From the NCBI GenBank assembly GCA_016182085.1, contig JACOYB010000006.1, positions 2,015-66,014 of the forward strand: a stretch of DNA of 64,000 bases. The letters run 5' to 3'. Within the stretch, counting starts at the first letter, position 1; every line of letters begins with the position of its first letter. The notes under the pieces are model-generated. The model did not search any database. It was not told where the DNA came from and saw nothing but the letters and a program-made list of their open reading frames with translations. This document shows, in pieces, positions 8,247-62,576 of the stretch. The stretch comes from Candidatus Magasanikiibacteriota bacterium. Lineage in GTDB: Bacteria > Patescibacteriota > Patescibacteriia > Magasanikbacterales > GWA2-37-8. The position numbers were made by a program, and so were the translations under genes.

Positions 8247-8330
8247 AGCCGCGGTGGTGAAATTGGTAGACACGCCAGCCTTAGGAGCTGGTTCTCGCAA
8301 GGGAATGAGAGTTCGAGTCTCTCCCGCGGC
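8247..8330 (+). tRNA. tRNA-Leu(TAG), type II
   Basis: Acceptor GCCGCGG/CCGCGGC, anticodon stem CCAGC/GCTGG, loop CTTAGGA, long variable arm, T-arm GAGAG/TTCGAGT/CTCTC. Confidence 0.85.
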
Positions 8331-30061: not shown

Positions 30062-31141
30062 ATGCAAATTACAGTTATAAAAAATCAAAACGAATGGAAT
30101 AGTTGGTTTTTACAAAAACCAGAGCCTCATAGCTTTGCCCAATCCTGGGCTTGGGGCGATATTTTAATTTCCGAAGGAAAAAAAGTGGAACGATTAGCGG
30201 TCATAGAAAATGAATTAGTTATAGCGCAAGCGCAGGTGGTGTATAGCCCTATTTTTTTCGGCTGGCAGTATGCCTTTTGTCCCAAAGGGCCGGTGGTTGA
30301 TTCACTCAGAAGTGAAGATGGTAAAATACAAATATATAAAATAATCAAAGAATACTTAAAAAATAAAAATTGTATATTTTTTAGAATTGAACCGGGAGTA
30401 TTGCCGGTTATGCCGCGTTCATTTTTTTTCAAAAAAACAATTGATATCAACCCATCAACCACGCTGCTGCTTAATTTAAACCAAACTGCCGCTCAGTTGC
30501 GCGGCAATATGCATCCTAAAACCAGGTATAATATTGCCCTAGCAGAAAAGAAAAATGTAAAGATTATCCAGGAAAAAAATTTGGAAGTATTTTGGATGCT
30601 GATGAATAAAACCGGAAACCGAGATAAATTCAGTTTGCATCATAAAAAACATTATGAAAAAATATTGGCAGCAGAAAGCGTTTTTCAGCTTACAGCGTAC
30701 TATAACTCGGTGCCGGTCGCGTGCGCCGTATTTATTGGTTTTGGAAATACCTTTACTTATCTATACGGCGCGTCAGATTATGAATATAGAAATTTGATGG
30801 CGCCGTATTTGCTCCAATGGGAAGGTATGGAACTGGGTAATGATTTTGGCAGTAAATGGTATGATTTTTTTGGAGTCGCGCCACGTTTACAGTCGGAGTC
30901 GTCAGCTGTCATTCCCGCCGCTAGCGGGAATCCAGACAATTTAGGTCAACACGGGATTCCCAATCAAGTTGGAAATGACAGCTATAACTATAGCTTCAAA
31001 CACCAGTATGCCGGCGTAACCCGCTTTAAATTGGGTTTTGGTGGCGTTCCCTATGAAGCCCCGGGCACGTTTGATCTGGTGGTTGATAAGAAAAAATATA
31101 AAATATATACTTTGCTTCGGTGGTTGCGGCGGTTATTTTAG
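30062..31141 (+). CDS. FemAB-family peptidoglycan interpeptide-bridge aminoacyltransferase-like protein (palindromic repeat inserted in-frame)
   Basis: SWAWGDIL and FemAB-like pattern. Residues SAVIPAASGNPDNLGQHGIPNQVGND are encoded by the repeat. Confidence 0.65.
   Translation: MQITVIKNQNEWNSWFLQKPEPHSFAQSWAWGDILISEGKKVERLAVIENELVIAQAQVVYSPIFFGWQYAFCPKGPVVDSLRSEDGKIQIYKIIKEYLKNKNCIFFRIEPGVLPVMPRSFFFKKTIDINPSTTLLLNLNQTAAQLRGNMHPKTRYNIALAEKKNVKIIQEKNLEVFWMLMNKTGNRDKFSLHHKKHYEKILAAESVFQLTAYYNSVPVACAVFIGFGNTFTYLYGASDYEYRNLMAPYLLQWEGMELGNDFGSKWYDFFGVAPRLQSESSAVIPAASGNPDNLGQHGIPNQVGNDSYNYSFKHQYAGVTRFKLGFGGVPYEAPGTFDLVVDKKKYKIYTLLRWLRRLF
30908..30981. repeat. Palindromic repeat R2 (GTCATTCCC family) inside the FemAB-like CDS, reading frame preserved
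   Basis: gtcattcccgccgctagcgggaatccag ... gggattcccaatcaagttggaaatgacag. Confidence 0.8.
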
Positions 31142-31317: not shown

Positions 31318-33669
31318 TTATTCTTCAGCTGGGTTTGCTTTAGTTGAAGCAGTCTCTTCATTTGTTTTTTTATAATCACATTCTTTACTGCTGCATTTGA
31401 TAACTCCTTTGGCGGCAAAAACCAGTGGCTGTTTGCAGGTCGGGCAGAATTCGCCAGTTGGTTTTTCCCACAACGCATATTCACAATCCGGATAGCGGTT
31501 GCAGCTATAGAATGGCTTGCCGCGCTTGCTGCGGCGCTGCACGATATCGCCCTCGCCACACTTAGGGCACTTCATGTTCATTTTAATTTCAATATTTTTA
31601 ATATTCTTGCATTTAGGATAGCCGGAACATCCTAAAAACGGCCCGAATCGTCCGCGGCGCAGGATCATTGGTTCGCCGCACTTTTCGCATTTTTCGTTTG
31701 CTTCCTCCACCGCTTCTTGCTGTTTGGCTTCCTCGGCGTTTAAAGATTTGGTTGTTTTACACTCCGGATATTTGGTGCAAGCCAAATATTTGCCAAATCG
31801 TCCGGTTTTAATAATCATATCCGAGCCGCACTTTTTACATTTTTCATCGGATTTTTCTTCGGTCAAAACTTTTTTATCTATTTCTTGTTCTTTTTTATCC
31901 AAGTTTTCTTTAAACGGTTTCCAAAAATCACCAATCACCGGCCGCCACTGCTTTTTACCGCGGGCGATTTCATCAAGATTATTTTCCATTTCCGCCGTAA
32001 ATTCATAATCTACGACATGGTGGAAATGTTCTACTAGTAAATCGTTAACAATATAGGCGATGTCTTTGGGGGCAAACCTTTTTTGTTCGTTGCGCTCAAT
32101 ATAGCCCCGATCCTCAATCGTAGAAATTGTGGGAGCATAGGTAGAAGGCCGGCCAATGCCATAATTTTCCATAGCTTTTACGAGTGTTGCGTCCGAGTAT
32201 CTGGCCGGAGGTTCGGTAAAATGCTGTTCCGGTTTAAGTTCGTTACAGGTAAGCGGTTCGTTATTCTTAAGCTGCGGCAAGAGATTTTCTTTGGCTCTAT
32301 CCGGGAACAGCTTTAAGAAACCATCAAAGACAATAGTTTGGCCATTGGCTCGGAATTTATAATCATTTTGGCTAGATATATCTATCGTAGTGGCATTTAG
32401 CTCGGCTGGGGCCATCTGGGTGGCAACAGCGCGTCTCCAGATAAGGTCATAAAGCCTGAATTGTTGTCTGTCTAGGTATTGTTCTATAGACTCGGGTGTG
32501 CGCATAGCTTCGGTAGGTCGTACGGCTTCGTGGGCTTCTTGAGCGTTTTTACTTTTATTATTATAAATTCTAGGAGAATCCAGCTGATATTTTTTGCCAA
32601 AATTATTACCGATAGTATCTTTGGCATCAGCCAAAAATTTTTCCGAAAGATTAACCGCGTCCGTACGCATGTAGGTAATCAGACCTACGGATCCTTCAGT
32701 TCCAAGTTCTATGCCCTCGTATAATTGCTGCGCCAAACGCATAGTCTGTTTGGCCGAAAAACCAAGATGACTGTTGGCTTCTTGTTGGAGGGTAGAAGTG
32801 GTAAATGGGGGAGAAGGCAAGCGTTTGGTTTTTTTCTCTTCCACGTTTTCTACTATATAAGTAGTTTTTTCTAAATCAGCCAAAATTTTGTCTATCTCCG
32901 CTTTAGTTTTTATATCTAGCTTATCTATTTTTTTGTCTTTGATCGCAATGAGCTTTGCGGTCAAGCAATTGTCATTCCCAACGAATTGGGAATCCAGTGT
33001 CCGGTTGTCTGGATTCCCGCTGGAGTTTATCCCGTGCTCCGACACGGGAGCGGGAATGACAAGCGACGAGTCGGAATGACAGAACAGCCCCTCGATACTC
33101 CAGTACTCTTCCGGGTTAAAAGCTTTTATTTCTCTTTCTCGTTCTACAATCAGGCGCACAGCCACCGATTGCACGCGTCCGGCCGACAAACCCTTGGCTA
33201 CTTTGCGCCACAAAAATGGAGATAGTTCATAACCCACTAATCTGTCCAAGATTCGGCGAGCTTGTTGCGCGTCTACCATTTTTAAATCTAGCGGGCGTGG
33301 ATTTTCTAGAGCATGCATTATGGCGGTTTTGGTAATTTCATGGAATACAATGCGTTTGGCGTCTTTTGGTTCAATTCCCAAAATATTGGCCAAGTGCCAA
33401 GAGATAGCTTCTCCTTCTCGGTCCTCATCGGTAGCAAATAGGATACCATCGCATTTTTTGGCCGCTTCTTTTAGTTCTTTGGCTACTTTGGTTTTGTCGC
33501 GGCTTACAATATAATGAGGTTCAAAATTATGTTCTACATCCACCCCCAGTTTGCTTTTTGGCAAATCACGGACATGGCCAAAAGAAGACTTCACAACAAA
33601 GTTTCTGCCCAAAAATTTGGAAATAGTTTTGGCTTTAGTAGGGGATTCTACGATGACTAAATTTTTCAT
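31318..33669 (-). CDS. topA: DNA topoisomerase I with C-terminal zinc ribbons (palindromic repeat inserted in-frame)
   Basis: Toprim VIVESPTKAKTI, active-site region, four C4 zinc ribbons. Repeat encodes SLVIPAPVSEHGINSSGNPDNRTLDSQFVGND. Confidence 0.9.
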   Translation of the reverse strand: MKNLVIVESPTKAKTISKFLGRNFVVKSSFGHVRDLPKSKLGVDVEHNFEPHYIVSRDKTKVAKELKEAAKKCDGILFATDEDREGEAISWHLANILGIEPKDAKRIVFHEITKTAIMHALENPRPLDLKMVDAQQARRILDRLVGYELSPFLWRKVAKGLSAGRVQSVAVRLIVEREREIKAFNPEEYWSIEGLFCHSDSSLVIPAPVSEHGINSSGNPDNRTLDSQFVGNDNCLTAKLIAIKDKKIDKLDIKTKAEIDKILADLEKTTYIVENVEEKKTKRLPSPPFTTSTLQQEANSHLGFSAKQTMRLAQQLYEGIELGTEGSVGLITYMRTDAVNLSEKFLADAKDTIGNNFGKKYQLDSPRIYNNKSKNAQEAHEAVRPTEAMRTPESIEQYLDRQQFRLYDLIWRRAVATQMAPAELNATTIDISSQNDYKFRANGQTIVFDGFLKLFPDRAKENLLPQLKNNEPLTCNELKPEQHFTEPPARYSDATLVKAMENYGIGRPSTYAPTISTIEDRGYIERNEQKRFAPKDIAYIVNDLLVEHFHHVVDYEFTAEMENNLDEIARGKKQWRPVIGDFWKPFKENLDKKEQEIDKKVLTEEKSDEKCKKCGSDMIIKTGRFGKYLACTKYPECKTTKSLNAEEAKQQEAVEEANEKCEKCGEPMILRRGRFGPFLGCSGYPKCKNIKNIEIKMNMKCPKCGEGDIVQRRSKRGKPFYSCNRYPDCEYALWEKPTGEFCPTCKQPLVFAAKGVIKCSSKECDYKKTNEETASTKANPAEE
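32971..33082. repeat. Palindromic repeat R3 inside topA, frame preserved
   Basis: gtcattcccaacgaattgggaatccag ... ctggattcccgctgg...gggagcgggaatgacaag ... tcggaatgacag. Confidence 0.8.
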
Positions 33670-33725
33670 AATCGAAATGAGTGAGTAAATATATAAGCTT
33701 GCTTATTTATTTACGAGCGAATGAG
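33670..33725 (-). promoter_or_regulatory. Bipartite conserved upstream motif (box A and box B) abutting the topA start
   Basis: Minus-strand read ...CTCATTCGCTCGTAAAT...TTACTCACTCATTTCGATT-ATG. Extra degenerate boxes further upstream. Confidence 0.6.
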
Positions 33726-33889: not shown

Positions 33890-34969
33890 TTATCTCACAA
33901 TATAATTCATCCCGCCCAAGTTGCGAACTCGCCCTTTCATCTCCATTAAAACCAGGGCGCTATTTACCGTCGGGCTCTCTAAACCGGTGGTTTTTATAAT
34001 CAAATCTATATGCACCGGTTCTTTGGAAAGACACTCCAATATCCTGGCTTCGGTGGCGTTGGTCGGTACAGTTTTTTTATCGTTTACTATTTCTTTCAGT
34101 TCTTGGATGTTTAAAGCCTCTAAAACATCTTTGGCTTCAGCAACCAATTTTGCTCCCATTTTTATTAAATTATTTGGGCCAATGCCGGTGGGAGAGTTAA
34201 TAGGGTGGGGAACAGCAAAAACTTCGCGGTTATAATCAAGAGCGCAACGGGTAGTAATAAGAGCACCAGAAATTTCGGCTGCTTCTATAATTAGTGTGCC
34301 TAAACTGAGGCCGGCAATAATACGATTGCGAGCCGGAAAAGAATAAGCGGTTGGCGCAAACCCTGGTGGGTATTCGGAAATTACCGCTCCGCCGGAGGCG
34401 ATAATCTGTTCGGCCAGCAAATTATGAGTGGTAGGAGCCACAGTTTTTTTATCTATGCCGCCGCCCAAAACCGCAACCGTGATCCCGCCATTATCAAGTG
34501 TGGTCTGGTGCGCGATACCGTCTATGCCAAGAGCTAGACCGCTTACAATTACCACGCCTTGTTTGGCTAAAGGGCCCACGATTTCTTCACAAGCAAGCTT
34601 GCCATACGCGGTATATTTTCTGGTGCCAACTACGCCTATAGCCGGCGATTCGTCCGGTGGCAGTATGCCGCGAACAAACAATGTGTGCGGCGGATCGTTT
34701 ATTTCTTTTAAGAGTTTAGGAAATCCCGGTTCGGTTATAGATACCGTTTGTATTTGTTCTTTTTCCAGTCGTTCCATGATCTTGTCTATGGGGTTGTCTT
34801 CGCGCCAGGATAAAAATTCATGAGCAATATTCTCTTCCAGTCCGGCCGGCACCAGGTCGCTTATTTCCGCCTCCCAAAGATTTTTGAAATTAGAAAAATA
34901 AGCCGCCAATTTTTGGTAGCGGTTGTAGGTGATTTTGGGGAAGTGAGCCAGGGCGGCGTGGTATTTCAT
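33890..34969 (-). CDS. dprA: DNA processing protein DprA (Smf)
   Basis: GLALGIDGIAHQ, AVLGGGID, ISEYPPG motifs of the DprA Rossmann domain. Confidence 0.85.
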   Translation of the reverse strand: MKYHAALAHFPKITYNRYQKLAAYFSNFKNLWEAEISDLVPAGLEENIAHEFLSWREDNPIDKIMERLEKEQIQTVSITEPGFPKLLKEINDPPHTLFVRGILPPDESPAIGVVGTRKYTAYGKLACEEIVGPLAKQGVVIVSGLALGIDGIAHQTTLDNGGITVAVLGGGIDKKTVAPTTHNLLAEQIIASGGAVISEYPPGFAPTAYSFPARNRIIAGLSLGTLIIEAAEISGALITTRCALDYNREVFAVPHPINSPTGIGPNNLIKMGAKLVAEAKDVLEALNIQELKEIVNDKKTVPTNATEARILECLSKEPVHIDLIIKTTGLESPTVNSALVLMEMKGRVRNLGGMNYIVR

Positions 34970-35010
34970 GGTGAGGAGTAGAGAGTAAGTGGTAAGGAGT
35001 AGTGTTTGTT

Positions 35011-35217
35011 TGTCATCCCGCCTGCCCGCCCTGTCGTTGGCGGGAGTGAGGCCTTAGCCGACGAGGGATCTAGGGTTGTCATTCCCGCCACAGCGGGAAT
35101 CCAGTATCCAATCAAATCGACTGGATCCCCGCTGTGGCGAGGATGACAACTGTGCAGACAGAGATTCCCTACCTACCGCAGGTAGGCTCACCCCTGCGAA
35201 GGGATTCGGAATGACAG
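35011..35217. repeat. Composite four-module palindromic repeat R4 (intergenic dprA-pth)
   Basis: Four modules: gtcatcccgc..gagggatctag, gtcattcccgccacagcgggaatccag, ctggatccccgctgtggcgaggatgacaa, cagacagagattccc..gggattcggaatgacag. Same architecture as R6. Confidence 0.8.
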
Positions 35218-35218
35218 C

Positions 35219-35752
35219 TTAAATCAGTGTCTCAATTTCTTTAATAATATTTTTCGCTACTGTATCTAAAATCTTTTTTTCGGCAGCTGTGAATTTTCCC
35301 AACACAAAGCCAGCGGTGTCTTTTATCTTTTCTTGTTCTTTTGGCGCCACGCCCACGCGAATGCGAGTAAAGTTTTGCGTGCCTAGATGTTCTATAATTG
35401 ATTTGATGCCATTATGTCCCGCTGGCCCGCGATTGGTCTGTATGCGCGTTTCTCCCAAAGGAATATCTTTATCATCATGAATAACAATTAAATTTTCCGG
35501 TTTTAGTTTATAAAAATTAAGTAAGGCCTGAACCGCTACGCCAGAGTTATTCATATAGGTTTGAGGCATGGCCAGGGCAGTGCGCTTTTTATTTATTTTA
35601 CCTTTGCTGATTAAAGCATTTGATTTTTTATCAAAATTCCAATCTGCAAATTCAAATGTGGCGAGCAGTTTTTCTAATATTAAAAAACCGGCATTATGAC
35701 GAGTGTCGGTATATTCTTTTTCCGGATTGCCCAAGCCGATTATAAGTTTCAT
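35219..35752 (-). CDS. pth: Peptidyl-tRNA hydrolase
   Basis: MKLIIGLGNPEKEYTDTRHNAGF and HNG motifs. Confidence 0.9.
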   Translation of the reverse strand: MKLIIGLGNPEKEYTDTRHNAGFLILEKLLATFEFADWNFDKKSNALISKGKINKKRTALAMPQTYMNNSGVAVQALLNFYKLKPENLIVIHDDKDIPLGETRIQTNRGPAGHNGIKSIIEHLGTQNFTRIRVGVAPKEQEKIKDTAGFVLGKFTAAEKKILDTVAKNIIKEIETLI

Positions 35753-48054: not shown

Positions 48055-50619
48055 TTAGTTGTCGTTTTTTTTCATGACCAAACTCCAGATTTTGTCGGAA
48101 CCAAGCTCTGTTAGTTTTATTGACATGCCATTAGCTGCAGCCGAAAGTCCGAGGCCGTCGTGCCAAATTGGCAGCCAGCCATCCGGGAAAATTACCTGGC
48201 TTTCAAAGTTGCTGTTAATGCCGGATTGTTTTTGCGCCACAAGTTGATAATTGGAAATTGGTTCCTGAGATTGAAAAATTTTTGCCCAATTATTTAAGTT
48301 TGAATCACCTTGTTTTTCCCAGGCTTTAAATGGTAATTTGTAGATAAATTGAACTTCTGTCGTTTGGCCTGGTTCGGTAATGATCCAGTTGCCAAAAGCT
48401 GTTTTGCCAAATTCTTTGGTAATGCGGGTACCTGATAAACTATCGGTTGATTCTTCTTTTTCCAGGGCAGCTAAGGTTTGGTCTTTTTCATACCAGCTTT
48501 CCGGAGCTCTAAATATTCTTTCTTCTGGCCAGGTAAAGCCGCTGGCGCGCACGAGCTCACTGCCTTCGGGTACATAGATTCGCAGGTAATCAATATTGGT
48601 TTGTCCATATAATTTTTCTTGACTGTTTCCGGTATGCTCTCGGGTTATAACGACGCTGTTTACAATCGTGCCGTCTGGCTGGATAACCGCCTGGTGGCTG
48701 ATGTTTTGTTTTATTTTTGCGTCACTTTTCTGTCCTTGAATATTGGTATTTACTACAAGCAGGTAATCTTGATTTGGATTTGTTTGTATGATTTCGCCGC
48801 TCCAGCCAAATTCGCGAATCGTTTTTTGAGTATTTTCATCGGTAAAGTATGTTTGAATTTCTTTTTGCTGCAAGCCTTCTTCCAAGTTGGTAAGCATTGG
48901 CAAAACTGCTTTTGGTGTTATGTTTTTGAAATTTTCAATAAAAACCGGCGCCAAATCCGATAGAATTTGTTTAGGTTTATTATCCTTTTTTTCTGGGCCA
49001 TACTCTACGATATCTTGAATGGTGGCGAGTGCATTTGTTTTGTCTAAAACCAGTCCGCGATTCTCGTCGGCTACCGGACCCATTATGGAAAGTAGGCGAT
49101 TCAAAACACTGGCATTTATAGCGATTACCCCGTCAGCCGTAACTCCGCGGCTATGGCGGTAGAACCAAAGTGCTTTTTCGGCACTGGCCGGAAAGTCAGG
49201 GAACCAGTTGGCATCCTGGAACTCCCAGCGTTTATTGGATAATAGTAGCGGCGTAGGCGGGACAATATACTCGGTAAGCTGTCCTTGCAGGTCATAGGAT
49301 CCGCCGGCGGGAATGTCTATATGTATTATTTCACCATCCTTAATGTCTAACATGGCAAAACTGCCCATAAAACCGCCGGTAGGACGGAGCTCAGCCGGAT
49401 TTTGGAAAATAAGCAAGTATCTTCGCAGACCCTTGCCGCCAAAAATTTCCTGTACGGCGTTATTTAACTGAGCGATGGTTTCCAGATCTTTGACGTAGAC
49501 ATTAAATAAAACACGGAATTCTTTAAATGTGTCTTGGTATTCAAACGGCAACACATCTGAATCAACGTTATTTAATTCACGCACGGCTGTTTGATAATGG
49601 GGCAGGGAAAATTTTAGATGATCTCCCACAAGCGCCAGATTTTTGGTGATGGTGGAGTTGGATTGTTGAATTTCAGACAAACCTTTGAGCAAGTAGGTGT
49701 TGCCTAAGGAAATTTCTTGTCCGGCGACGATAAGCCGCTGGCGGCTTTGGACCTCGTTGTTCACGATAGGTACGGCTGAAATGATTTTTTGTAAAAAGCT
49801 ATATTTACTGTCCAAGATATTTACAGCCTGTTCAAAATTTTGCAGCGCGTCAGTGAGTGATAGCTGGGCATCGGTTAGGTTGCCGCTCATAAGCGCGGAA
49901 GTAGAATCGTGCAGCGCGGTAAAACCGGCGGTGCTGCTATCCGCGATTTTGTTGGTTGTGGATTTGAGGTCAAAGTAATAGGTGCGCGCGCCAGACGGTA
50001 CGAATATTAAAAAGAGTATGGCGAGTGTCGCGCCTACAAAATGCTTGGGAGCGGCTGTAGCGCGAATTTTATGTATGGCAGATTTAGCTTTTTGCGCGTG
50101 TGAAAATTTTAGATCAGAAAGTTTTTGGGATAATTTTTTAATTGTCATCCCGAACTTGTTTCGGGATCTAGATGCTGAAACAAGTTCAGCATGACGCTGT
50201 GTATTTTTTTGTTGAGTTGGTTCTTTTTGGGCTTCCATTATTTTTGGCAAGAAAGACGGCGCTGCCACCGGCTTAGCAGCCGATTGCGCAGCGGTATGCC
50301 GCTCATGAAAAAAATAAAAATCATTATTTTCTTCCGGAGCCACGGCTTGGATATGTTCCAGTAATTTATTCTTTTCTTTTTTAAGATTTACCAGGTGCGG
50401 GGATTCATGATTTTGATATTGAACATGGTGTACAAAAAATTTGAGCGGCGCGCGTTCCGTTTGACCAGTGTTTGTTTGCGATACCATGTTTGGGCTCACT
50501 TGTTTGTCCAGGTTGAAACTTAAAGCATCTGGGCAAGTGGATTTGTTGTGCCCTACTTTTTGGCAGAAACCGCAATGTCGGAGCTGGAGTTTTTTAGCCG
50601 GTTTTAGTTTTTTGGCCAT
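48055..50619 (-). CDS. Hypothetical large membrane-anchored protein with N-terminal zinc-knuckle (palindromic repeat inserted in-frame)
   Basis: CGFCQKVGHNKSTC, one TM helix, ~650-aa extracytoplasmic domain. Repeat R5 encodes HAELVSASRSRNKFGMT. Confidence 0.5.
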   Translation of the reverse strand: MAKKLKPAKKLQLRHCGFCQKVGHNKSTCPDALSFNLDKQVSPNMVSQTNTGQTERAPLKFFVHHVQYQNHESPHLVNLKKEKNKLLEHIQAVAPEENNDFYFFHERHTAAQSAAKPVAAPSFLPKIMEAQKEPTQQKNTQRHAELVSASRSRNKFGMTIKKLSQKLSDLKFSHAQKAKSAIHKIRATAAPKHFVGATLAILFLIFVPSGARTYYFDLKSTTNKIADSSTAGFTALHDSTSALMSGNLTDAQLSLTDALQNFEQAVNILDSKYSFLQKIISAVPIVNNEVQSRQRLIVAGQEISLGNTYLLKGLSEIQQSNSTITKNLALVGDHLKFSLPHYQTAVRELNNVDSDVLPFEYQDTFKEFRVLFNVYVKDLETIAQLNNAVQEIFGGKGLRRYLLIFQNPAELRPTGGFMGSFAMLDIKDGEIIHIDIPAGGSYDLQGQLTEYIVPPTPLLLSNKRWEFQDANWFPDFPASAEKALWFYRHSRGVTADGVIAINASVLNRLLSIMGPVADENRGLVLDKTNALATIQDIVEYGPEKKDNKPKQILSDLAPVFIENFKNITPKAVLPMLTNLEEGLQQKEIQTYFTDENTQKTIREFGWSGEIIQTNPNQDYLLVVNTNIQGQKSDAKIKQNISHQAVIQPDGTIVNSVVITREHTGNSQEKLYGQTNIDYLRIYVPEGSELVRASGFTWPEERIFRAPESWYEKDQTLAALEKEESTDSLSGTRITKEFGKTAFGNWIITEPGQTTEVQFIYKLPFKAWEKQGDSNLNNWAKIFQSQEPISNYQLVAQKQSGINSNFESQVIFPDGWLPIWHDGLGLSAAANGMSIKLTELGSDKIWSLVMKKNDN
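50144..50197. repeat. Palindromic repeat R5 (two hairpin units, 54 nt = 18 codons) inside CDS 48055..50619
   Basis: gtcatcccgaacttgtttcgggatctag + atgctgaaacaagttcagcatgac. Confidence 0.7.
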
Positions 50620-52455: not shown

Positions 52456-52545
52456 CTCATTCGCTCGGAAATATCCAGTATAAATATTTTAGCTCGCAAG
52501 CGATCAAAAATATTTTCCTGTCTATTTCACTCACTCATTTCGTAT
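52456..52545 (+). promoter_or_regulatory. Bipartite conserved upstream motif (box A, box B) abutting the start of ORF 52546
   Basis: tatatgCTCATTCGCTCGGAAAT ... CACTCACTCATTTCGTAT-ATG. Confidence 0.6.
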
Positions 52546-52956
52546 ATGAAAGAATCATTTTTCAAACATATTCCAAAACCGGAATCAGGCGCTGAAGAAC
52601 CGCACAAACAACCCAAAGTTGTAGACATTCCAGCCGGCGGCAAAGAGAAAAAAATAGATGCAGACCCGATTGCCCGATACACTAAAACTTACCACAAAAT
52701 CATGCTTGATTTCGGTCATCAAATTATAAACTCAAAAGAGAAAAGCCTGGCTATACCAAATAGTTTAGAACTCATGATAAAAAATTGCGACACCGATCAG
52801 CTGGTTGGTGAGATTGAGAATACAAAAAAGGAAGACTGGAAACGCAGGGAAGTGTTGTTTAAAGCAATTACCGATGAAATTTATCTGCGGTTATGGGAAG
52901 CAAGGAAAGGTTCAAAAAGAAAAACTAAATCCGCCGATATTATAAAAGTTCAATAA
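52546..52956 (+). CDS. Hypothetical protein
   Basis: Start set at MKESFF, where the conserved box B ends. The ORF-track start at 52453 would put the motif inside coding sequence. Confidence 0.45.
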   Translation: MKESFFKHIPKPESGAEEPHKQPKVVDIPAGGKEKKIDADPIARYTKTYHKIMLDFGHQIINSKEKSLAIPNSLELMIKNCDTDQLVGEIENTKKEDWKRREVLFKAITDEIYLRLWEARKGSKRKTKSADIIKVQ

Positions 52957-54235
52957 ACTCTTTGGCAGATTCTGTCCAGCTAAATTTTTTAGCTTGCTCT
53001 GGGCCTAATTTTTTAAAATCTTCTCTCAAGGATTCATTTTTTAGTATATCCGCCATTGCTTTTGCTAGTTCTGAAGGGCGGTTGGGGTTTACCAAATAGG
53101 CGGCATTTTCGGTGATTTCCGGCAAGGATGAGCGGTGGGAGGTAATAACCGGTACGCCACAGGCCATCGCTTCGGCTACAGGAAAACCAAAACCTTCATA
53201 AAAACTTGGGTAGACAAATAAGTCCGCTAATGAATACAAAATGTGTTTATCTATTTCTGCTACCGAACCGATAAATATTATTTTATCTCTGGCTGGTGAT
53301 TTTTGCGCGGCGCTAAAAATGGCTTCGTCATTCCAGCCTTTATGGCCGGCAATTATTAGGGAGTAGGTGGTAGGCAGTAGGGAGTAGCATTGTTCAAAAG
53401 CACTTATTAGGCCAATAATATTTTTGCGCGGTTCTATAGTGCCTAGGAAAAGAATAAACTTACCTGGAAGGTTGTATTTTTTTTGTACCATTTCTTTGTT
53501 TGTCATCTCGAGCGATCCCGACTGCTCGGGAGACGAGGGATCTTTATCCGTTGTCATTCCCGCCGCAAGCGGGAATCCAGTATCCGATTGTCTGGATTCC
53601 CGCTGTGGCGGGAATGACAAGTGACCGGACAGAGATTCCTCGCCGATGCGAACCGGGTTCGGAATGACAGTTGATTGATTGTTTGAGCAGGTAACCCCAG
53701 GATAAATCACTTTAATTTTTTCCGATGGAATTTTGTACAAGTCAATGATATCTCGTTTGGTATTTTCCGACGGCGTAATGATAATCTCAGCCTGCTGGCA
53801 TTGTTTTTTTGGGTTAACCGCCCAGTGCCATAAGCGTTGTTTGGGAGAAAAAAATTGCGGAAAAAATTCAAAAGACAGATCGTGGACAGTAAGTATCTGT
53901 TTTGGTTTTTTGGTTAGGGCGGTAAAGCCAAAATTTGGTGAAAAGAAATAGTCCAGTTTAATTTTTTTGTCTATTTTTGGCGCGTTTAGAAGTTTTGTAG
54001 ATGCGTTAAATAATTTGTTGGGCCAGCGCGTGGCAACATAGCCTATATTAGGCTGTTTCCACTCAGGAATATTTTTGGAAATATCCGTATATGAATTATA
54101 AAAAAGAAAATATTGATTTTGTTTATCAATTTCAAAAATAGCATTCAGAAGTTCGTGTGTATATTCGCCTATGCCAGCCCGAACGGGAGACATGAGAGAG
54201 CGGATATCTATGCCAATTTGCAACATACTACCCAA
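52940..54235 (-). CDS. GT4-family glycosyltransferase (composite palindromic repeat inserted in-frame)
   Basis: C-terminal EGFGFPVAEAMACGVPVI. Residues LSGHLSFPPQRESRQSDTGFPLAAGMTTDKDPSSPEQSGSLEMTNKE come from repeat R6. Confidence 0.75.
   Translation of the reverse strand: MGSMLQIGIDIRSLMSPVRAGIGEYTHELLNAIFEIDKQNQYFLFYNSYTDISKNIPEWKQPNIGYVATRWPNKLFNASTKLLNAPKIDKKIKLDYFFSPNFGFTALTKKPKQILTVHDLSFEFFPQFFSPKQRLWHWAVNPKKQCQQAEIIITPSENTKRDIIDLYKIPSEKIKVIYPGVTCSNNQSTVIPNPVRIGEESLSGHLSFPPQRESRQSDTGFPLAAGMTTDKDPSSPEQSGSLEMTNKEMVQKKYNLPGKFILFLGTIEPRKNIIGLISAFEQCYSLLPTTYSLIIAGHKGWNDEAIFSAAQKSPARDKIIFIGSVAEIDKHILYSLADLFVYPSFYEGFGFPVAEAMACGVPVITSHRSSLPEITENAAYLVNPNRPSELAKAMADILKNESLREDFKKLGPEQAKKFSWTESAKEFIELL
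53502..53670. repeat. Composite four-module palindromic repeat R6 inside GT4 CDS, frame preserved
   Basis: Modules parallel R4: gtcatctcgagcgatcccgactgctcgggagacgagggatct, gtcattcccgccgcaagcgggaatccag, ctggattcccgctgtggcgggaatgacaag, cagagattcc..ggaatgacag. Confidence 0.8.
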
Positions 54236-57396: not shown

Positions 57397-58998
57397 TTAT
57401 AATGGAAGTTGGCTTGAACCTTCCGTAGGTTGTTCGGTCGGGGCCGGTTGTTTTGGCTGAATAAATTTATCAAATCCTTGCGGCAATTCCACTCGTCTGA
57501 ATTGTTGTGGGCCTTGTTCCCAAGGCAGCTCGTCTTCTTTCCCGGTTAGATCCTCAATTTTGCTTTCAAACTCTTGTTTTATATTTTCTAAGTCATCCAA
57601 AGCATCGCTAACCATGTCGGTGTCTACGGGCTTGGTTTTTAAGAGGTTGAGAACTTCTACGCCCTTTTCGTTCGCTTGGGCAAGAATAGATTCTAGTTCG
57701 CTAGTATCTACTTTTTTTCTCTTTAAGTTTTTAATAGTGAGATTGGCTTGAGCCATGCCTCGCTTGAATTCGGAATTAAAGCGGCCTAAATTGCTCATTG
57801 TCATTATGACTCTTTGATATTGCCAAACATCATCCATTTGGCCAAAGAAATCATCTTCCAAAGCAGAAAATGCTTCTTCCGAGTTGCCAGCCTTCATTTT
57901 AGCTACAGCATCATCACGAACACTTTTTAGTTTGTTTACAGCTTCTTCAAAAGCTGTGTATTCGCTCTGAACATCTATGCCTTTTTTAGCCAGAGTGGCT
58001 ACAGTTAATTTTGCTCGTTTTAAAGCGGCGGATAGTTGAGCTAATTGACGATCAATTTGTTTTAAGGTTTGTGGCCAGCGAGCCAAAACCTCCAATTGTT
58101 GGCGGTCTTCGTCAAATGTCTCCATCATATCTCGCATTGATTCCATTTCTTCCTGCACATCTTCAAAAGATGTTGCGTTTTTGACCTTATCAACCACAGA
58201 ACGAAGTTTGGCTACATGTTCGGTAATATCAGTAGGCACGGTTATGCCTTTTTTAGACAGAACGGCTAGCTGTCTCTCAAACATTTTGAGCCCTGTTTCC
58301 ATGCCTTTCATGCCGCGTTTCATGCCTTCTATTTGTTGCGCCTTTTCAAAAATTTCTCTTCTGGCATCTTCTAGATAGCGCATTAAAACTTGCACCTCGC
58401 TTATATCAACGTCTTCCAAGCCTTCAGCGCTCGTGGCATTTTGGATTTTATCAAGCAGAGTCTTTAGGTCGCTTAATTTTTGTTTTACTTCTTCAGGAAC
58501 AGCCGTGCCTTTTTTTTCGGCGCTGGCGATCATTAGTTCAAATTGCTTGACTTGGCGGGCCATTTGTTTCATCCCTCTTTTTATTTGCTCCAATTGTCTG
58601 CCATCATTTTGTCCGCCCATCATGCCTTGATTCTGGCTAGGGTCATAATTTGGCGGCATTTGGCCTGGGTACTGTTTATATTGATCGCCAGATGGGGGCA
58701 TCATGCCTTGAGGCGGCATTGGGTATTGCCCTTGGTTTGGATCTTGGGGGTACATTGTTCCCTGGGGAGGCATTGGATATGTCTGATCGGAGCCGCTTGG
58801 TGGAGGGGGCGGCATAGGAGAGGTAGGAGCCGGGGCAATGGTTGTATTGTCTTCGGCGTATACTTGGGTTGATCGTACGGCCTTAAACAGTACCTTAAGG
58901 CTTTGTGGTAATTCTAAATAAAAAGCGTGTGCTGGTTTTGCCATTAATGTGAACGCAAAAATAGCAAAAATTGATATTATTTTTGCAAAATGTTTCAT
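57397..58998 (-). CDS. Hypothetical secreted Pro/Gln-rich coiled-coil protein
   Basis: Signal peptide MKHFAKIISIFAIFAFTLMAKPAHA, PPxG low complexity, then long heptad region. Confidence 0.5.
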   Translation of the reverse strand: MKHFAKIISIFAIFAFTLMAKPAHAFYLELPQSLKVLFKAVRSTQVYAEDNTTIAPAPTSPMPPPPPSGSDQTYPMPPQGTMYPQDPNQGQYPMPPQGMMPPSGDQYKQYPGQMPPNYDPSQNQGMMGGQNDGRQLEQIKRGMKQMARQVKQFELMIASAEKKGTAVPEEVKQKLSDLKTLLDKIQNATSAEGLEDVDISEVQVLMRYLEDARREIFEKAQQIEGMKRGMKGMETGLKMFERQLAVLSKKGITVPTDITEHVAKLRSVVDKVKNATSFEDVQEEMESMRDMMETFDEDRQQLEVLARWPQTLKQIDRQLAQLSAALKRAKLTVATLAKKGIDVQSEYTAFEEAVNKLKSVRDDAVAKMKAGNSEEAFSALEDDFFGQMDDVWQYQRVIMTMSNLGRFNSEFKRGMAQANLTIKNLKRKKVDTSELESILAQANEKGVEVLNLLKTKPVDTDMVSDALDDLENIKQEFESKIEDLTGKEDELPWEQGPQQFRRVELPQGFDKFIQPKQPAPTEQPTEGSSQLPL

Positions 58999-59091
58999 AT
59001 ACGAAATGAGTGAGAGAGCTAAATTAAATGTGCTTAATTTAGTTCCGAACGAATGAGTATATACCTTAGTATATTCGAAATGAGTGAGAGA
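58999..59091 (-). promoter_or_regulatory. Conserved upstream motif cluster (box B, box A, box B) abutting the start of ORF 57397..58998
   Basis: Minus-strand read CTCTCACTCATTTCGAATATAC...TATATACTCATTCGTTCGGAA...CTCTCACTCATTTCGTAT-ATG. Confidence 0.6.
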
Positions 59092-59279
59092 AAGAATTAA
59101 ATGTTTTAATTCTTTCCCAGTGTTTGAGCATATACCTGAAGTATATGCGTTTTAAAAAAGAAGCTGATTAGATATATAGCCGCAGAAGCGGCAACGACCT
59201 TTTAGGAGATTTATTTTACGATAAAAGTATTATACCATAAATTTTGAAAAAAATCAAGGTCTATTCTAGCTAAAGTTTG

Positions 59280-62314: not shown

Positions 62315-62494
62315 TGGACGAGGAGGGGCTTGGCTTCGACTAAAATTTTCTTCCGAAAATTTTGTCTAGCCACCCGTCCGAACGGATTCATCCGGGCGGG
62401 CCGCCTCACGGCCGCGCTCGCCCGCCTGCGTCGCGCGACATCGTTCCGGCGTTCTCGTCCCTCGCCGCAACACAAACTATTGTGTTGCTCTTAG
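62315..62494 (-). other. Conserved GC-rich tRNA-Leu-associated element (copy 2) ending in a direct repeat of the tRNA-Leu(CAG) 3' end
   Basis: Reverse complement ~85% identical to 8331-8514. Terminal cccctcctcgtcca repeats the tRNA 3' end. Confidence 0.75.
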
Positions 62495-62576
62495 TGGACG
62501 AGGAGGGACTTGAACCCTCAAGGATTGCTCCATACGCTTCTGAGACGTACGCGTATACCAGTTCCGCCACTCGTCC
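62495..62576 (-). tRNA. tRNA-Leu(CAG), type II
   Basis: Acceptor GGACGAG/CTCGTCC, anticodon stem TACGT/GCGTA, loop CTCAGAA, long variable arm, T-arm GAGGG/TTCAAGT/CCCTC. Confidence 0.8.

Follow-up and report, generated by a model that had tools for sequence, protein, structure and literature searches.

Genes and hairpin composites in the window

The 64-kb stretch of DNA analyzed here (the window), from Candidatus Magasanikbacteria (Patescibacteria), carries, between dprA (33890-34969, minus strand) and pth (35219-35752, minus strand), a palindromic element that runs from TGTCAT at position 35011 to GGAATGACAG at position 35217 (copy A). A second such element (copy B) occupies positions 53501/53502-53670 and lies in-frame, without a stop codon, inside a GT4 glycosyltransferase ORF on the minus strand (52940-54235; Pfam PF00534 and PF13439). 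A sequence-only reading of this DNA had located both stretches, and its positions were correct to within 1 nt, as were the neighboring genes and the in-frame location that it gave. It had also described the two copies as the same ordered series of modules (M1 to M4). Indeed, the copies could be aligned in module order at 78 to 79% identity (78% mean column identity in one alignment and 139/176, or 79%, in another). The likeness is complete for the order of the modules and partial for the outer ones: M1 and M4 are alike only at their ends and over some of their interior, and their lengths differ (M1, 61 nt in copy A and 43 nt in copy B; M4, 60 and 42 nt).

The composites have a twofold symmetry, in that GTCAT... 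is read on the plus strand in M1 and M2 and on the minus strand in M3 and M4. M2 and M3 are, almost without deviation, the same 28-nt hairpin in opposite orientations; it has a stem of 8 bp (ATTCCCGC), a loop of 4 nt, and a CAG tail and is referred to here as the NTS type. In copy A, M2 and M3 form a 31-nt inverted repeat that is 90% complementary and separated by 14 nt, and M2 of copy A (35076-35104) is complementary at 29 of 29 positions to M3 of copy B (53592-53620). M1 (GTCATC.CG..GACGAGGGATCT) and the reverse complement of M4 (GTCATTCCGA..GAGGAATCTCTG) represent two related hairpin types, which we designate D (GTCATCCCGAG..GACGAGGGATCT) and E (GTCATTCCGA..GGAGGAATCTCTG). The unit order is outer D type, inner NTS type, spacer, inverted NTS type, and inverted outer E type; in each composite, one inverted hairpin doublet occupies the spacer between the two units of another.

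In copy A, the outer D-type hairpin M1 (35011-35071, plus strand) reads TGTCATCCCG...GACGAGGGATCT, and its interior holds two extra small GC hairpins; the interior sequences GAGGCCTTAGCCGACGAGGGATCT and CCCGCCCTGTYGTTGGCGGG were seen again at loci L161 and L006, respectively. M1 is followed by the inner hairpin M2 (35077-35104, plus strand; TGTCATTCCCGCCACAGCGGGAATCCAG), with its 8-bp stem, 4-nt loop, and CAG tail, and by a spacer (35105-35120; TATCCAATCAAATCGA) that is homologous to the spacers of copy B and of L001, the orthologous GT4 site of a relative whose protein is 70% identical. An inverted form of this spacer is present in L161 and L221. The inverted inner hairpin M3 (35121-35148, minus strand; TGTCATCCTCGCCACAGCGGGGATCCAG) fits the published SRM pattern described below, and the inverted outer E-type hairpin M4 (35158-35217, minus strand; CTGTCATTCCGAATCCC...GGGAATCTCTGT) contains an extra nested palindrome, CCTACCTGCGGTAGG. 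Copy B comprises a D-type M1 (53501-53543, plus strand), over which the gene strand encodes ..DPSSPEQSGSLEMT..; an NTS-type M2 that fits the SRM pattern (53552-53580, plus strand; TGTCATTCCCGCCGCAAGCGGGAATCCAG); a spacer (53581-53591; TATCCGATTGT); an inverted NTS-type M3 (53592-53619, minus strand) that matches the NTS with 3 mismatches; and an inverted E-type M4 (53629-53670, minus strand), over which the gene strand encodes TVIPNPVRIGEESLS.

Folded as single-stranded DNA (ssDNA), each composite forms one long nested hairpin, with energies of -56.8 and -57.3 kcal/mol (z = -6.7 and -9.2); none of 200 shuffled sequences was equally stable. The string GTCATTCCCGC, with at most 1 mismatch allowed, occurs 10 times in the window, against 0.79 occurrences expected.

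Identity of the hairpin units

Two bodies of published work describe hairpins of this kind. The Neisseria NTS is a 28-nt sequence, CGTCATTCCCGCGMAVGCGGGAATCYRG, that contains the dRS3 repeat (ATTCCC-N8-GGGAAT); it is bound by the 94-amino-acid GIY-YIG nuclease SsnA, which cleaves it solely as ssDNA. The motif has been generalized to "Ssn-related motifs" (SRM), and an NTS-ssnA-NTS gene architecture has been described, in a survey that was based on RefSeq representative genomes and leaves Patescibacteria unmentioned (PMC11893778, 2025). Earlier, Di Nocera, De Gregorio and Rocco (2013; PMC3733652) defined CGTC-tagged REPs, which have a CGTC or TGTC tag, an 8- to 9-bp stem starting with AT, a 4- to 5-nt loop, and a 3-nt tail and which occur mostly as inverted dimers, some of them grouped. 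In that work CGTC-1 is the same as dRS3, the Rickettsia repeats RPE-4 and RPE-6 are of the CGTC type, intragenic copies encode 20 to 82 residues (43 to 82 for clusters), and the repeats had, as of 2013, no known dedicated transposase.

The SRM pattern matched the window 4 times, against 0.13 matches expected from Markov simulations, and three of these matches lie within the elements (at 30907, at 35121 on the minus strand, and at 53552). When 3 mismatches were allowed, the NTS string matched at 35077 (M2 of copy A) and at 53592 on the minus strand (M3 of copy B). No match to the published SRM pattern was obtained for M1 or M4, because their interiors are long (20 to 45 nt) and irregular; both start with AT. 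All units in the window read TGTCAT..., with the TGTC tag directly before the stem. Among 261 canonical units, GTC is preceded by T in 141 and by C in 113, and the stem begins with AT. In 98 to 99% of these units, the bases at stem positions 7 and 8 form Watson-Crick pairs; compensatory changes (GC to AT and CG to TA) are seen, and the four innermost nucleotides, which make up the loop, are not paired. At the 3' end, GGGAATC is followed by CAG in 184 of the 261 units, and ATCCAG ends every inner unit of the window. Judging from tag, stem, loop, and tail, the inner units are members of the known dRS3/NTS/SRM (CGTC/TGTC-tagged REP) family and not a new repeat, and the outer units probably belong to it as well. 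An Rfam search of the whole window at gathering thresholds gave no match at any element. An adaptor or assembly artifact was ruled out, since isolate genomes carry the units with unique spacers.

Further copies and reading frames

Elements are present at six loci in the window, and at four of these they lie in-frame within genes. The third four-unit composite (copy C, 649-786) is more diverged, and its outer units are in the opposite order (E..D'). It is intergenic, flanked by two small paralogous membrane-protein ORFs, and an almost identical version of its inner doublet is present in L084. Small secreted or membrane proteins with the motif WMTA.GN.E (direct repeat family D2) form a tandem family in this region (178-561, 815-1339, 1354-1884, and further paralogues to ~4600), and copy C sits between two members. 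An inner-type doublet (30907-30980) lies in-frame in a FemAB-family ORF (30062-31141, plus strand), where it encodes the peptide AVIPAASGNPDNLGQHGIPNQVGNDS. The topoisomerase I ORF, topA (31318-33669, minus strand), holds an in-frame inner-type doublet plus a half unit (32970-33081; peptide CHSDSSLVIPAPVSEHGINSSGNPDNRTLDSQFVGNDN), in which the loop of one unit is expanded. The remaining locus is a tail-to-tail doublet of another subtype (GTCATCCCGAACTTGTTTCGGGATCTAG) at 50143-50196, in-frame in an 854-residue DUF4012-like ORF (48055-50619, minus strand). A generic detector of GTCAT-headed hairpins was too permissive (18 matches against 8.9 expected) and served only to spot this doublet.

In all of the intragenic copies (GT4, FemAB, topA, and DUF4012-like), the host frame is open and the other frames are closed, whereas the intergenic copies have stop codons in six of six frames. 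This indicates that openness derives from selection on the host gene and is not a built-in property of the repeat.

Partial 5' half units such as CGTCATTCCCGCGTCTTCTCC are reiterated in tandem beside full units (L122, 74-138; window, 33062-33081 and 30890-30906) and could have arisen through repeated cutting and repair on the side of the tag.

Several other features of the window were recorded. A group I intron (Rfam RF00028, 69.9 bits) is located at 12119-12317 within the 23S rRNA gene (9485-12690). A 172-nt inverted repeat that is 90% complementary has its arms at 8334-8505 and 62322-62493, each directly downstream of a tRNA-Leu gene (8248-8332, plus strand; 62494-62576, minus strand). A leader-like motif of approximately CTCACTCATTTCGTAT is found immediately upstream of several start codons (8596-8627, 33663-33694, 52526-52551, 58993-59017, and 59071-59102), and a related ACTCC-rich leader precedes dprA both in the window and in L249.

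The insert in the GT4 glycosyltransferase

The GT4 insert had been estimated at about 48 residues; we measured about 56, corresponding to residues 186 to 241 of the 431-residue ORF. This ORF starts with TTG, and the NCBI protein (P0001) begins 3 codons downstream; an exact-protein look-up of the TTG-start ORF returned no record. An AlphaFold model built with an alignment of 30 orthologues was confident overall (mean pLDDT, 85.8; pTM, 0.83). Residues 186 to 241, which lie between the two Rossmann-like halves, had a pLDDT below 50 and no secondary structure, and the insert is therefore predicted to be a disordered, 56-residue interdomain loop.

Orthologues of GT4, topA, and FemAB differ in length at the insert-bearing loops. 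A second loop of the GT4 family, located after PKxDK, bears NTS-type inserts in some orthologues (LSFPRKRES...FRRNDN; alignment columns ~120 to 165; P0074, P0086, and P0100), and the linker of P0020 and P0023 contains another type of palindrome, encoding PSPYRGG...PSPIRGG.

At the nucleotide level, the composite of the window and that of L001 are 86% identical, whereas the GT4 coding sequence around them is 70% identical (Fisher P = 3e-5), a difference that suggests constraint or homogenization acting on the DNA hairpin rather than on the protein. Alternatively, the higher conservation of the composite could reflect a recent independent insertion or gene conversion.

Distribution outside the window

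The doublet junction was used to scan one genome per species, which gave at least 126 matches at no fewer than 120 loci. Among the matches listed, 74 of 126 also carry both flanks, GTCATTCCC and GGGAATGAC, which were absent from the search pattern. The matches listed come from Proteobacteria, Nitrospirae, Planctomycetes, Acidobacteria, Gemmatimonadetes, Chloroflexi, Rickettsiales, and several Candidate Phyla Radiation (CPR) lineages, and they include one from a Rickettsia endosymbiont (L069). The doublet is spread across many bacterial phyla. Seven complete NTS-type doublets were also found in IMG/VR contigs classified as viral (L257, L259, L260, L263, L264, L273, and L274); they might mark the edges of prophages or a path by which the repeats spread horizontally.

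The sequence-only reading had proposed a search for further full-length composites. Besides copy C and L001, such composites were recovered from metagenomes, where contigs were retrieved with an outer-to-inner junction pattern (at least 120 contigs). The D-N-N'-E' architecture is present at unrelated sites in at least four of the 120 contigs listed (L162, L207, L219, and L221). Among the same 120 contigs, there were 51 two-unit matches and 4 four-unit matches, and the commonest arrangement was E followed in tandem by NTS without partner units.

Modularity and movement of the composite

The sequence-only reading held that the composite transposes as a unit. This is borne out in part: the whole composite has been copied at least once, but it is not a single, indivisible transposon. 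The homology of copies A, B, and L001 covers their full length. All three share the spacer TATCC..TCAAAT.G and the M4 interior ATTCCGAATCCC.TTCGCA.GGGG, neither of which is required by the hairpins, and therefore at least one duplication must have copied the whole composite.

Modularity is apparent at the same GT4 site. The linker is empty in some orthologues and in others holds, on its own, an E unit, the outer E-plus-D doublet, a single inner unit, or the inner doublet. At L161, a D unit like that of copy A M1 is accompanied by a near-identical but inverted spacer, and with L221 this locus places the inner spacer in both orientations relative to the outer units. Expanded NTS loops often hold recurrent smaller hairpins. 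These observations favor an account in which the composite never moves whole, each locus having been built by successive insertions into earlier loops and the likeness between loci being due to homogenization. All of the substates are seen at the single GT4 site, the inner spacer is found either way round with respect to the D unit, nested subhairpins in loops are common, and two-unit matches outnumber four-unit matches by 51 to 4 among the 120 metagenome contigs listed. Such independent assembly would not, however, reproduce the idiosyncratic nonstem sequence that A, B, and L001 share in units, linkers, and spacer. Nor does it sit easily with the distribution of copy A: three syntenic relatives (L248, L249, and L250) lack it in the orthologous spacer between pth and dprA, so that it must have arrived as a complete 204-bp block or been built very quickly. 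We consider independent assembly as the sole process unlikely.

The pth-dprA spacers of these relatives measure 169 nt (L248), 174 nt (L249), and 25 nt (L250) and are otherwise unrelated; in none of the three did we find a clean empty site for copy A with definable exact junctions. The topA and FemAB loops are hot spots in which the types of unit differ between lineages. In the FemAB loop, the element is absent in the close relative L248 and different units are present in L250; the topA loop is empty in L249 and L250 and contains different hairpins in L248. Two sites that look unoccupied, in GT4 of L005 and in FemAB of L248, nevertheless retain the sequence TGTC...GATGACA. They perhaps are not truly empty: the sequence may be left over from an element since deleted or may be a tag-like target.

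The sequence-only reading had proposed to look for target-site duplications at the ends of the elements; none was seen at any of 10 copies. All of the copies have short inverted termini, and these together with the length of 135 to 205 bp, typical of a MITE, could be taken to mean that the composite is a classical MITE, that is, a deletion derivative of an insertion sequence with the terminal inverted repeats TTGTCAT/ATGACAA that is mobilized by a DDE transposase. The missing target-site duplications argue against this. In addition, the 7-nt termini are merely the tags of the outermost hairpin units, the internal organization is modular and separable, and the units exist across phyla as singletons and doublets. 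A MITE of this kind is hardly credible as the explanation.

In a neighbor-joining tree of the GT4 orthologues, the two genes with a full composite were not sisters, and the tree thus does not decide on a history of nesting followed by losses; an ancestral composite and one gained twice were not distinguished. On the sequences compared, the insertion of one doublet into the loop of another, yielding a product that could then be copied whole, looks like the most economical reading. The composite is a defined, recurrent, and copyable architecture, yet it is modular and not a classical transposon; movement as a unit is partly supported.

We also weighed the possibility that the element has been domesticated, either as programmed Ssn sites that limit the recombination of incoming ssDNA or as RNA hairpins that stabilize or punctuate transcripts. 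In Neisseria, NTS and SsnA together reduce transformation by NTS-bearing DNA (PMC11893778). Copy A lies between pth and dprA, the next gene, topA, bears a doublet, and the composite is better conserved than the coding sequence around it, all of which would suit such a role. However, copy A is missing from the pth-dprA spacer of the three relatives (in one of them this spacer is just 25 nt long), insertion sites are scattered over unrelated genes, the hairpins match no Rfam family, and presence or absence is too patchy for a conserved function. There is also no T run after the hairpins, on which ground a role as an intrinsic terminator was rejected. Overall, domestication appears very unlikely.

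Copy A is situated directly upstream of dprA (34970-35217), which encodes an ssDNA-handling protein of natural transformation, with topA as the next gene. As the three relatives have no copy A, this proximity is probably a coincidence.

Proposed mechanism and candidate enzyme

The best explanation of the data, to which we assign a probability of about 65%, is that the composite is a cluster of four TGTC-tagged units arranged as nested doublets and generated as follows. The units would be nonautonomous selfish repeats that spread via ssDNA hairpin intermediates, acted upon in trans by a hairpin-specific enzyme. The best candidate for this enzyme would be Ssn, a small GIY-YIG nuclease that cleaves ssDNA a few nucleotides 5' of the tag and whose gene is itself flanked by hairpins, apparently also in a patescibacterial genome. 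New units would prefer the single-stranded loop or spacer of existing hairpins, giving a Russian-doll structure, and the nested product could then be copied whole. In coding DNA, the survivors would be only those insertions that are in-frame, free of stop codons, and placed in tolerant surface loops.

The candidacy of Ssn draws on gene neighborhoods. Ssn-like GIY-YIG ORFs of 94 to 98 residues lie 9 to 206 bp from NTS units in seven of the loci fetched, one of them patescibacterial (L106). The L106 protein has Tyr10, Tyr21, and Glu68, whose spacing is the same as that of the catalytic residues Y6, Y17, and E64 of SsnA (PMC11893778), and we take these residues to be equivalents. Close homologues of Ssn number in the thousands, many of them labeled Patescibacteria. 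Within the 64-kb window, we found no ssn gene by regular-expression search or by tblastn (E ≤ 10) and no recognizable transposase linked to the units. Ssn has been demonstrated to cut ssDNA and to modulate transformation, not to mobilize repeats (PMC11893778), and a part for it as mobilizer would be an extension of that activity.

An alternative is that the inverted doublets are REPINs mobilized by a REP-associated tyrosine (HUH/Y1) transposase (RAYT), as has been proposed for the ATTCCCGCGCAGGCGGGAATC repeat in Neisseria, which Bertels and Rainey attribute to the Group-2 RAYT NMAA_0235. The doublet fits the definition of a REPIN (two inverted hairpins with a short spacer that form one long hairpin), and the lack of target-site duplications is compatible with it. 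Against this, the tag is TGTC/CGTC and not GTAG, a RAYT gene with CGTC units at its flanks was found in no species (Di Nocera et al.; PMC3733652), and Ssn-like ORFs adjoin units 7 times in the unit-bearing loci. A tblastn search with Escherichia coli RayT (E ≤ 1), a single distant query of limited sensitivity, found no match in the window or in 1.6 Mb of unit-bearing loci. Mobilization by a RAYT is accordingly regarded as quite unlikely.

A stronger form of the preferred mechanism can be envisaged, in which the units are moved by a transposition-like, Ssn-dependent process with no tyrosine or DDE transposase. Such a process would target the loops of extruded hairpins, build nested mobile elements, and be a regular source of new disordered loops in essential CPR proteins, for example, topoisomerase I. 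We advance this as speculation only and consider it doubtful.

Implications and comparison with known systems

The dRS3/NTS repeats, the CGTC-tagged REPs, and the RPEs have been named separately; here they are joined, and the repeat is now seen in a CPR bacterium. A known family is thereby placed in an additional phylum, where it is regularly nested and where an unusually large proportion of the copies lie in-frame in genes. The GT4, topA, and FemAB loops provide a natural series (empty, one unit, doublet, and nested composite) in which the birth, nesting, and loss of repeats can be studied and which bears on a question dating from 2013, namely, whether the Ssn nuclease mobilizes the repeats. 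For annotation, the repeats explain odd low-complexity peptides of CPR proteins such as VIPAKAGIQ, SFPRKRES, CHSEQSEESL, and DPSS..LGMT.

Like the CGTC-1 REPs (PMC3733652), the window units occur mostly as inverted dimers, and the inner ones combine an unpaired CGTC/TGTC tag with an 8-bp stem whose first bases are AT, a loop of 4 nt, and a tail of 3 nt. The CGTC-1 REPs were described in Proteobacteria, Chlorobi, Bacteroidetes, Spirochaetes, and Thermotogae, whereas the host of the window belongs to Patescibacteria (CPR). Unlike CGTC-1 REPs, the outer units (D and E) are long and irregular on the inside and fall outside the rule of a 4- to 5-nt loop, and the fixed, nested, four-unit arrangement is not described in PMC3733652. 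With regard to the Neisseria dRS3/NTS system, M2 and M3 differ from the NTS at 3 positions or fit the SRM pattern, and unit-flanked Ssn-like genes are present in a patescibacterial MAG. In Neisseria meningitidis, however, only 2% of NTS copies lie within genes (PMC11893778), compared with four of six loci in-frame in genes here, and that system includes ssnA, whereas the 64-kb window is without an ssn gene.

REPINs, BIMEs, and NIMEs are likewise inverted REP doublets that form one long hairpin, or mosaics of alternating units with semiconserved linkers. REPINs and BIMEs have a GTAG tag and are linked to RAYTs, whereas the window units have a TGTC tag and no RAYT was found; compared with the NIME arrays described, the doublet-in-doublet arrangement with fixed unit types is more regular.

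The RPEs of Rickettsia are palindromic repeats inserted in-frame in many unrelated, intact genes, where the added peptides are placed at positions compatible with the fold (Ogata et al. 2000, via PMC10969869 and PMC3733652). The window copies are similarly in-frame in the otherwise intact GT4, FemAB, topA, and DUF4012-like ORFs, and the GT4 insert is found where the modeled fold should tolerate it (pLDDT below 50, between the Rossmann domains). The host phylum is different, and RPE-1 is a longer element of ~150 bp and not a cluster of four short units. The window units are nevertheless likely to be relatives of the RPEs, a link that rests on the assignment of RPE-4 and RPE-6 to the CGTC type (PMC3733652) and on the doublet junction match in L069.
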